A stretch of DNA of 41,194 nucleotides from Teseptimavirus T7. A model generated the notes under the pieces. That model did not search any database. It had not been told where the DNA came from and saw only the letters and a list, made by a program, of their open reading frames with translations. Positions within the stretch are counted from its first letter, which is position 1. The number at the start of each line of letters is the position of its first letter. The stretch lies in sequence record PP384395. The stretch is one strand, 5' to 3'. A program made the translations under genes and the position numbers. Positions 36,287 through 37,600 of the stretch are shown here, one piece after another.

Positions 36287-36346
36287 AAACACGTGGCAAA
36301 CATTCCAAACCGGAGCCATACAGTACAAAGCACTCTTAGGCCTCTG

Positions 36347-36507
36347 TACCCACGCCGAAACAAGCGCTCATGAGCCCGAAGTGGCGAGCCCGATCTTCCC
36401 CATCGGTGATGTCGGCGATATAGGCGCCAGCAACCGCACCTGTGGCGCCGGTGATGCCGGCCACGATGCGTCCGGCGTAGAGGATCGAGATCTCGATCCC
36501 GCGAAAT
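36347..36507 (+). other. Plasmid backbone fragment (pBR322 tet-region sequence that lies upstream of the T7 promoter in pET-type vectors), includes a BglII site at 36488..36493
   Basis: acccacgccgaaacaagcgctcatgagcccgaagtggcgagcccgatcttccccatcggtgatgtcggcgatataggcgccagc...gatcgagatctcgatcccgcgaaat recognised as pET vector sequence; not T7. Confidence 0.85.
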
Positions 36508-36530
36508 TAATACGACTCACTATAGGGAGA
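36508..36530 (+). promoter_or_regulatory. Second, cassette-borne copy of the T7 phi10 promoter with gene-10 leader/RBS (36531..36586); no lac operator
   Basis: ttaatacgactcactatagggagaccacaacggtttccctctagCaataattttgtttaactttaagaaggagatataCCATGG; one mismatch to native leader in the XbaI site, NcoI at the start codon. Confidence 0.95.
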
Positions 36531-36586
36531 CCACAACGGTTTCCCTCTAGCAATAATTTTGTTTAACTTTAAGAAGGAGATATACC

Positions 36587-37297
36587 ATGGTGAGCAAGGG
36601 CGAAGAAGATAACATGGCCATCATCAAGGAGTTCATGCGCTTCAAGGTGCACATGGAGGGCTCCGTGAACGGCCACGAGTTCGAGATCGAGGGCGAGGGC
36701 GAGGGCCGCCCCTACGAGGGCACCCAGACCGCCAAGCTGAAGGTGACCAAGGGTGGCCCCCTGCCCTTCGCCTGGGACATCCTGTCCCCTCAGTTCATGT
36801 ACGGCTCCAAGGCCTACGTGAAGCACCCCGCCGACATCCCCGACTACTTGAAGCTGTCCTTCCCCGAGGGCTTCAAGTGGGAGCGCGTGATGAACTTCGA
36901 GGACGGCGGCGTGGTGACCGTGACCCAGGACTCCTCCCTGCAGGACGGCGAGTTCATCTACAAGGTGAAGCTGCGCGGCACCAACTTCCCCTCCGACGGC
37001 CCCGTAATGCAGAAGAAGACCATGGGCTGGGAGGCCTCCTCCGAGCGGATGTACCCCGAGGACGGCGCCCTGAAGGGCGAGATCAAGCAGAGGCTGAAGC
37101 TGAAGGACGGCGGCCACTACGACGCTGAGGTCAAGACCACCTACAAGGCCAAGAAGCCCGTGCAGCTGCCCGGCGCCTACAACGTCAACATCAAGTTGGA
37201 CATCACCTCCCACAACGAGGACTACACCATCGTGGAACAGTACGAACGCGCCGAGGGCCGCCACTCCACCGGCGGCATGGACGAGCTGTACAAGTAA
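36587..37297 (+). CDS. mCherry: mCherry red fluorescent protein (synthetic reporter, mammalian-type GC-rich codons)
   Basis: 236-aa [56 protein letters not shown]...GGMDELYK matches mCherry. Confidence 0.97.
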
Positions 37298-37348
37298 CTC
37301 GAGCGAGCTCCCGGGGGGGGTTCTCATCATCATCATCATCATTAATAA
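37298..37348 (+). other. Polylinker (XhoI, SacI, SmaI) plus untranslated 6xHis codons and tandem stops, downstream of the mCherry stop
   Basis: ctcgagcgagctcccgggggggg ttct catcatcatcatcatcat taataa; mCherry stop taa at 37295..37297 precedes it. Confidence 0.9.
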
Positions 37349-37391
37349 AAGGGCGAATTCCAGCACACTGGCGGCCGTTACTAGTGGATCC
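37349..37391 (+). other. Cloning-vector polylinker scar (TOPO/pCR-type: EcoRI, SpeI, BamHI)
   Basis: aagggcgaattccagcacactggcggccgttactagtggatcc. Confidence 0.75.
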
Positions 37392-37450
37392 GGCTGCTAA
37401 CAAAGCCCGAAAGGAAGCTGAGTTGGCTGCTGCCACCGCTGAGCAATAAC

Positions 37451-37497
37451 TAGCATAACCCCTTGGGGCCTCTAAACGGGTCTTGAGGGGTTTTTTG
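37451..37497 (+). terminator. Second, cassette-borne copy of the Tphi terminator (pET T7 terminator region 37393..37497)
   Basis: 105-bp block gctgctaacaaagcccgaaaggaagctgagttggctgctgccaccgctgagcaataactagcataaccccttggggcctctaaacgggtcttgaggggttttttg identical to native 24107..24211. Confidence 0.95.
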
Positions 37498-37600
37498 AAA
37501 GGGGCCGTCAATATCAGAAATAAGACGACGACCCTCGAACGATGATGCTCACTCTCGGAAAGACGTGTAGTCCACGGATGGACTCTCAAGGAGGTACAAG

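Follow-up and report, generated by a model that had tools for sequence, protein, structure and literature searches.

The DNA analysed here, a stretch of 41,194 nucleotides (the window), is almost certainly T7_mC-g17-o, an engineered T7 mCherry reporter phage made by PHEIGES and rebooted cell-free. T7_mC-g17-o is given as GenBank PP384395 in Supplementary Data 6 of Levrier et al. (Nat Commun 2024, PMC10933291), where mCherry was inserted downstream of gene 17, fluorescence was seen at lysis of E. coli B cultures and the phage was confirmed by NGS. The construct is thus already published, and the window contains no new natural system and no new biology. The sequence identity, the design of the junctions and the provenance were established directly in this analysis. 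The original prediction, made from the sequence alone, was of an engineered reporter phage with a synthetic T7 promoter-mCherry-terminator cassette between genes 17 and 17.5, and this was upheld by the parts of the cassette, the assembly primers and two variants of the T7 stock. All the elements that it named were found where it had placed them by site mapping and alignment.

Insertion site and T7 backbone

To define the insert the whole window was aligned to the T7 reference V01146 (39,937 bp). The 160-bp terminal repeats of the window match at both ends, showing that it is a full phage genome, with a length about 103% of that of wild-type T7. Alignment resolved two collinear blocks, with window 1 to 36286 corresponding to T7 1 to 36285 and window 37557 to 41194 corresponding to T7 36300 to 39937. 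Outside the insert there were two differences from V01146, an A added after T7 1896 (window 1897) and A22629G (window 22630, gp9 N227S). These are exactly the two differences from V01146 described for the authors' T7 stock in PMC10933291. The location of the added A is given in that paper as "in the gene 0.7", while the V01146 annotation has position 1896 in "possible gene 0.6B" (1636 to 1972) and gene 0.7 downstream of it (2021 to 3100). Against AY264774 (39,938 bp) the window coordinates are kept up to 35500, consistent with the same extra A in that record.

Between the two blocks the gene 17 stop (36286) is separated from the gene 17.5 start (37601) by 1314 bp as compared to 58 bp in V01146, in line with the predicted interval of about 1.3 kb, and the only T7-like sequences found there by alignment to V01146 were copies of phi10 with its leader and of T-phi. 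The foreign block runs from 36287 to 37557 and is 1271 bp long (60 + 1151 + 60). It is narrower than the span 36287 to 37600, none of which had been expected to be native to the phage; this held for 36287 to 37557, whereas 37558 to 37600 is native T7 sequence (Table 1). The native spacer lost 15 bp by design (T7 36286 to 36300, TTGGTAAATCACAAG). As the final G of the downstream overhang (oho2) coincides with T7 36300, strict alignment gives 1270 bp in and 14 bp out, and the design gives 1271 bp in and 15 bp out. The net gain is 1256 bp by either count, the size anticipated for a single insertion after gene 17. Neither the 15-bp deletion nor the nature of the 60-nt overhangs at 36287 to 36346 and 37498 to 37557 had been recognized in the original prediction. 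Base composition also marks the block, with a GC content of 0.60-0.65 over 36600 to 37300 as compared to about 0.46-0.52 in the flanks; the mCherry open reading frame has a GC content of 0.623 as compared to 0.484 in the T7 part of the window.

Table 1. Coordinates of the engineered genome, the inserted parts and the flanking T7 genes in the window.
Feature	Position	Strand	Supporting evidence
Complete engineered T7 genome	1..41194	+	Alignment to V01146; terminal repeats of 160 bp, identical at both ends
Gene 17, tail fibre, intact, wild type	34625..36286	+	Pfam Phage_T7_tail, gp37_trimer and gp37_C; 100% identity to T7
Synthetic orthogonal assembly overhang oho1, 60 nt	36287..36346	+	Equals 5' 60 nt of oho1-mcherry-s and reverse complement of the gp17-oho1-as tail
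pIVEX2.3d/pET backbone with tet(C) (pBR322) remnant, BglII at 36488	36347..36501	-	tet(C) match; contiguous with pET-like plasmid
T7 class III promoter, gene 10 leader and RBS	36502..36586	+	36502..36585 against T7 22881..22964: 83/84 bases, 98.8%
mCherry coding sequence, 236 aa + TAA, GC 0.623	36587..37297	+	236/236 identical to 6ylm_A
Vector polylinker, untranslated	37298..37389	+	XhoI, SacI, SmaI (37298-37315), Gly-Ser linker, His6 codons 37325..37342, TAATAA, TOPO-type remnant
TOPO-type polylinker remnant with EcoRI, SpeI and BamHI sites	37349..37391	+	Site map
T-phi terminator copy	37390..37497	+	99.1% identity to T7 24102..24210; hairpin 37457..37492, then U run
Synthetic orthogonal assembly overhang oho2, 60 nt	37498..37557	+	Equals 5' 60 nt of gp17-oho2-s and reverse complement of the oho2-mcherry-as tail
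Native T7 spacer, retained, with gene 17.5 RBS (GGAGGT)	37558..37600	+	Identical to T7 36301..36343
Gene 17.5, type II holin, intact, GTG start	37601..37804	+	Pfam Phage_holin_2_2, 7.5e-38; 100% identity to T7

The junctions were compared to the primer sequences in Supplementary Data 2 of PMC10933291. Four PHEIGES primers of 79-84 nt each matched the window exactly: gp17-oho1-as (36263 to 36346, minus strand), oho1-mcherry-s (36287 to 36365, plus strand), oho2-mcherry-as (37478 to 37557, minus strand) and gp17-oho2-s (37498 to 37577, plus strand). The g1 and g10 junction primers from the same paper had no match in the window. In PMC10933291 orthogonal oligonucleotide overhangs were added for leak-free assembly; the two 60-nt stretches at the edges of the insert are neither T7 nor vector sequence. 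The composition of the cassette corresponds to the T7p14-mCherry plan of T7 promoter, strong RBS, mCherry and T7 terminator, and Supplementary Data 3 of the paper lists one phage with an mCherry insertion near 36297. That position compares to junctions at T7 36285/36301 by alignment, and the oho1/oho2 mCherry amplicon is 1266 bp in the supplement as compared to 1271 bp (60 + 1151 + 60) in the window. These differences in the bookkeeping of size and position are minor and neither contradicts the identification of the window as T7_mC-g17-o.

Parts of the inserted cassette

The stretch from 36347 to 37497 had been predicted to be derived from a vector, and it proved to be exactly the plasmid amplicon, with matches to tet(C) and to pET-like plasmid records. 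Its first 19 nt (36347 to 36365) are the primer pIVEX2.3d-seq1-s, and 36347 to 36486 matches the tet(C) gene found on pBR322-type plasmids with 100% identity. A pET-like plasmid matched both flanks of the mCherry reading frame (36347 to 36590 and 37387 to 37497), with 100% identity in the T-phi part. A 42-aa open reading frame on the minus strand (36336 to 36464) gave a Pfam MFS_1 match below the gathering cut-off. This frame belongs to the piece of pBR322 tet(C) that came with the vector backbone, and in a phage genome it could be annotated in error as part of a resistance gene. Plasmid matches were also seen in records from Staphylococcus haemolyticus, Micromonospora, Ruficoccus and Aeromonas veronii (e.g. 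NZ_CP071514.1). These plasmids are small and carry a pET-type T7 promoter, lacO, T-phi and lacI, and they look like laboratory expression vectors contaminating unrelated bacterial assemblies.

The T7 promoter consensus of the cassette lies at 36508 to 36530, with the predicted +1 G at 36525, followed by an RBS (AAGGAG) at 36574 and an NcoI site at 36585. The 23-bp consensus TAATACGACTCACTATAGGGAGA is perfect at 36508, upstream of the reading frame; the window has eight such perfect sites, and the other seven lie outside the cassette. Three-way alignment showed that the native phi10 initial transcribed sequence was retained and that the XbaI site of the leader was altered from TCTAGA to TCTAGC. 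No lac operator was found in the cassette with up to two mismatches allowed. Because the cassette has no lacO and keeps the native phi10 transcribed start, the vector is a pIVEX2.3d-type plain T7-promoter cassette and not a T7lac one; pIVEX2.3d is a relative of pET made for cell-free expression, and the family was named from the coincidence of the amplicon edge with the primer pIVEX2.3d-seq1-s. The backbone had been described as pET-type in the original prediction; a closer name for it is pIVEX2.3d lacking lacO.

The reading frame at 36587 to 37297 was expected to encode a DsRed-family protein of 236 aa, and all 236 residues were identical to mCherry (6ylm_A, E=1.9e-161). It also matched Pfam GFP (PF01353) with 154 bits (cut-off 22, 3.9e-45), and its translation contains the Met-Tyr-Gly chromophore triplet in the motif FMYGSKA. 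At the DNA level the region was 98.7-99% identical to plasmid genes annotated as mCherry. Downstream of the mCherry stop the frame reads LERAPGGGSHHHHHH followed by two further stops, and the His6 codons are not translated because they come after mCherry's own TAA. The terminator copy has its T-phi core at 37450 to 37497 and folds, as expected, into a stem of 15 bp with a U run after it; for the 71-nt fold the centroid structure was at -22.8 kcal/mol. A 265-aa open reading frame on the minus strand (36569 to 37366) spans the whole mCherry gene and its product is of low complexity, rich in Leu, Gly, Val and Ala. We regard this frame as a side effect of the GC-rich, codon-optimised mCherry sequence, which leaves few stop codons on the antisense strand, and not as a gene.

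Alternative origins of the insert

Several groups have constructed T7 reporter phages that fluoresce, and the window could in principle be an independent T7-mCherry phage from another laboratory or made by another method such as homologous recombination with CRISPR selection. We consider this very improbable, as the four PHEIGES primers are present without a mismatch, the pIVEX2.3d-seq1-s site forms the amplicon edge, the leader carries the TCTAGC variant, and both the added A at 1896 and A22629G match the stock of PMC10933291. Even less credible is an artefact of assembly or contamination in which a wild-type T7 genome was mistakenly assembled together with expression-plasmid reads. Fragments of pET-type vectors do often contaminate assemblies, and several of the "plasmids" of unrelated bacteria look like such cases. 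Here, however, both junctions are exactly the designed primers that join T7-specific 3' ends to orthogonal overhangs, 15 bp of T7 were cleanly swapped out, and NGS confirmation and fluorescence of the phage are reported in PMC10933291.

A natural T7-like isolate that had gained foreign DNA by horizontal transfer, perhaps as a new accessory module lying between the genes for tail fibre and holin, has a probability that we regard as negligible. All that speaks in its favor is that a permissive site between genes holds DNA not from T7. It is opposed by the nature of mCherry, an engineered protein to which the product is identical at 236/236 residues, by the pBR322 tet(C) remnant, vector polylinker, His6 codons and published synthetic 60-nt primer tails that make up the insert, and by a backbone that is base-identical to the laboratory T7 stock. 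An accessory gene or moron natural to the T7 group was also considered and rejected: within the phage collection the block was carried only by the three engineered PHEIGES records, and its parts are vector-derived or synthetic.

Assembly, predicted behavior and comparison with known constructs

With the window taken as T7_mC-g17-o, its construction followed the PHEIGES route, in which a genome is put together in vitro from PCR fragments and cell-free transcription-translation then serves to reboot the phage. The 1151-bp amplicon (36347 to 37497) from plasmid T7p14-mCherry, with its pIVEX2.3d backbone, was joined to T7 fragments T7D1 and T7D2 through the two 60-nt orthogonal overhangs. In the assembled genome the cassette follows the stop codon of gene 17 directly, and 15 bp of the spacer are gone. 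From established T7 biology, T7 RNA polymerase is expected to initiate at the consensus class III promoter that the cassette brings in, and transcripts from the upstream phi13 and phi17 would be likely to read through into the cassette. The gene 10 leader and RBS would then drive strong translation of mCherry, ending at its own TAA. At its native site T-phi stops transcription incompletely, and the added copy would be predicted to terminate part of the transcripts ahead of genes 17.5-19.5. Infected cells should be red at lysis, as in the fluorescence reported in PMC10933291.

The added T-phi lies upstream of the genes for holin (17.5, about 100 bp away), terminase and spanin, a position at which wild-type T7 has none. 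The cassette also creates direct repeats in the same orientation, one of 84 bp with a single mismatch between the phi10/leader sequences (22882 to 22965 and 36502 to 36585) and one of about 108 bp with a single gap between the T-phi sequences (24103 to 24211 and 37390 to 37497), each about 13.3-13.6 kb from the native copy. It is possible, although we think it unlikely, that the extra T-phi and the new strong promoter alter late transcription of the right end (17.5-19.5), shifting lysis timing or packaging, and that the repeats drive rearrangements on passage. Recombination between the repeats would be expected to be selected against because the essential genes 10-17 would be deleted. Such effects, if real, would matter for the design of reporter phages and would not constitute new biology. 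That the spacer between genes 17 and 17.5 of T7 accepts a 1.27-kb insert was already reported by the PHEIGES authors. The significance of the window is one of data hygiene only: the record should be labelled synthetic and excluded from searches for new natural phage systems, as the GC-rich block, the extra promoter and terminator, the tet(C) fragment and the long antisense reading frame are by-products of engineering.

Compared to wild-type T7 (V01146 / AY264774), the window has all the same genes, promoters and terminal repeats and, the two stock variants excepted, is 100% identical outside the cassette, but differs by the gain of 1271 bp and loss of 15 bp between genes 17 and 17.5, which adds an eighth perfect-consensus T7 promoter site and a second T-phi. 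Compared to the pET / pIVEX2.3d cassette, it shares the tet(C) remnant, BglII site, T7 promoter, gene 10 leader with RBS, NcoI start, C-terminal His6 codons and T-phi, but has the XbaI site changed to TCTAGC and the tag left unfused, the mCherry stop having been kept. T7lac pET vectors differ in that their T7 promoter is followed directly by a lac operator, which the window cassette lacks.

Two sister constructs, T7_mC-g1-o (PP384397, "Mutant Teseptimavirus T7 clone recombinant T7_mCg1o") and T7_mC-g10-o (PP384393, "T7_mCg10o"), have the same T7 stock and mCherry cassette as the window, but carry the cassette after gene 1 and gene 10, respectively, and not after gene 17. By megablast PP384397 was 100% identical over the whole block at 36287 to 37557 (1271 bp, edges included). 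In a separate sequence comparison PP384393 was 100% identical over 36287 to 37497 (1211 bp including oho1). Both records are annotated with "T7 promoter added for mCherry cassette" and "mCherry, synthetic gene added". PP384393 differs further in that the cassette terminator falls at the annotated T-phi of that record, with no oho2 copy detected downstream. T7_mC-g17-o itself (PP384395, PMC10933291) shares with the window its locus of insertion and its cassette, along with the 60-nt overhangs on either side, all four junction primers and both stock variants, with no differences detected in the features compared.
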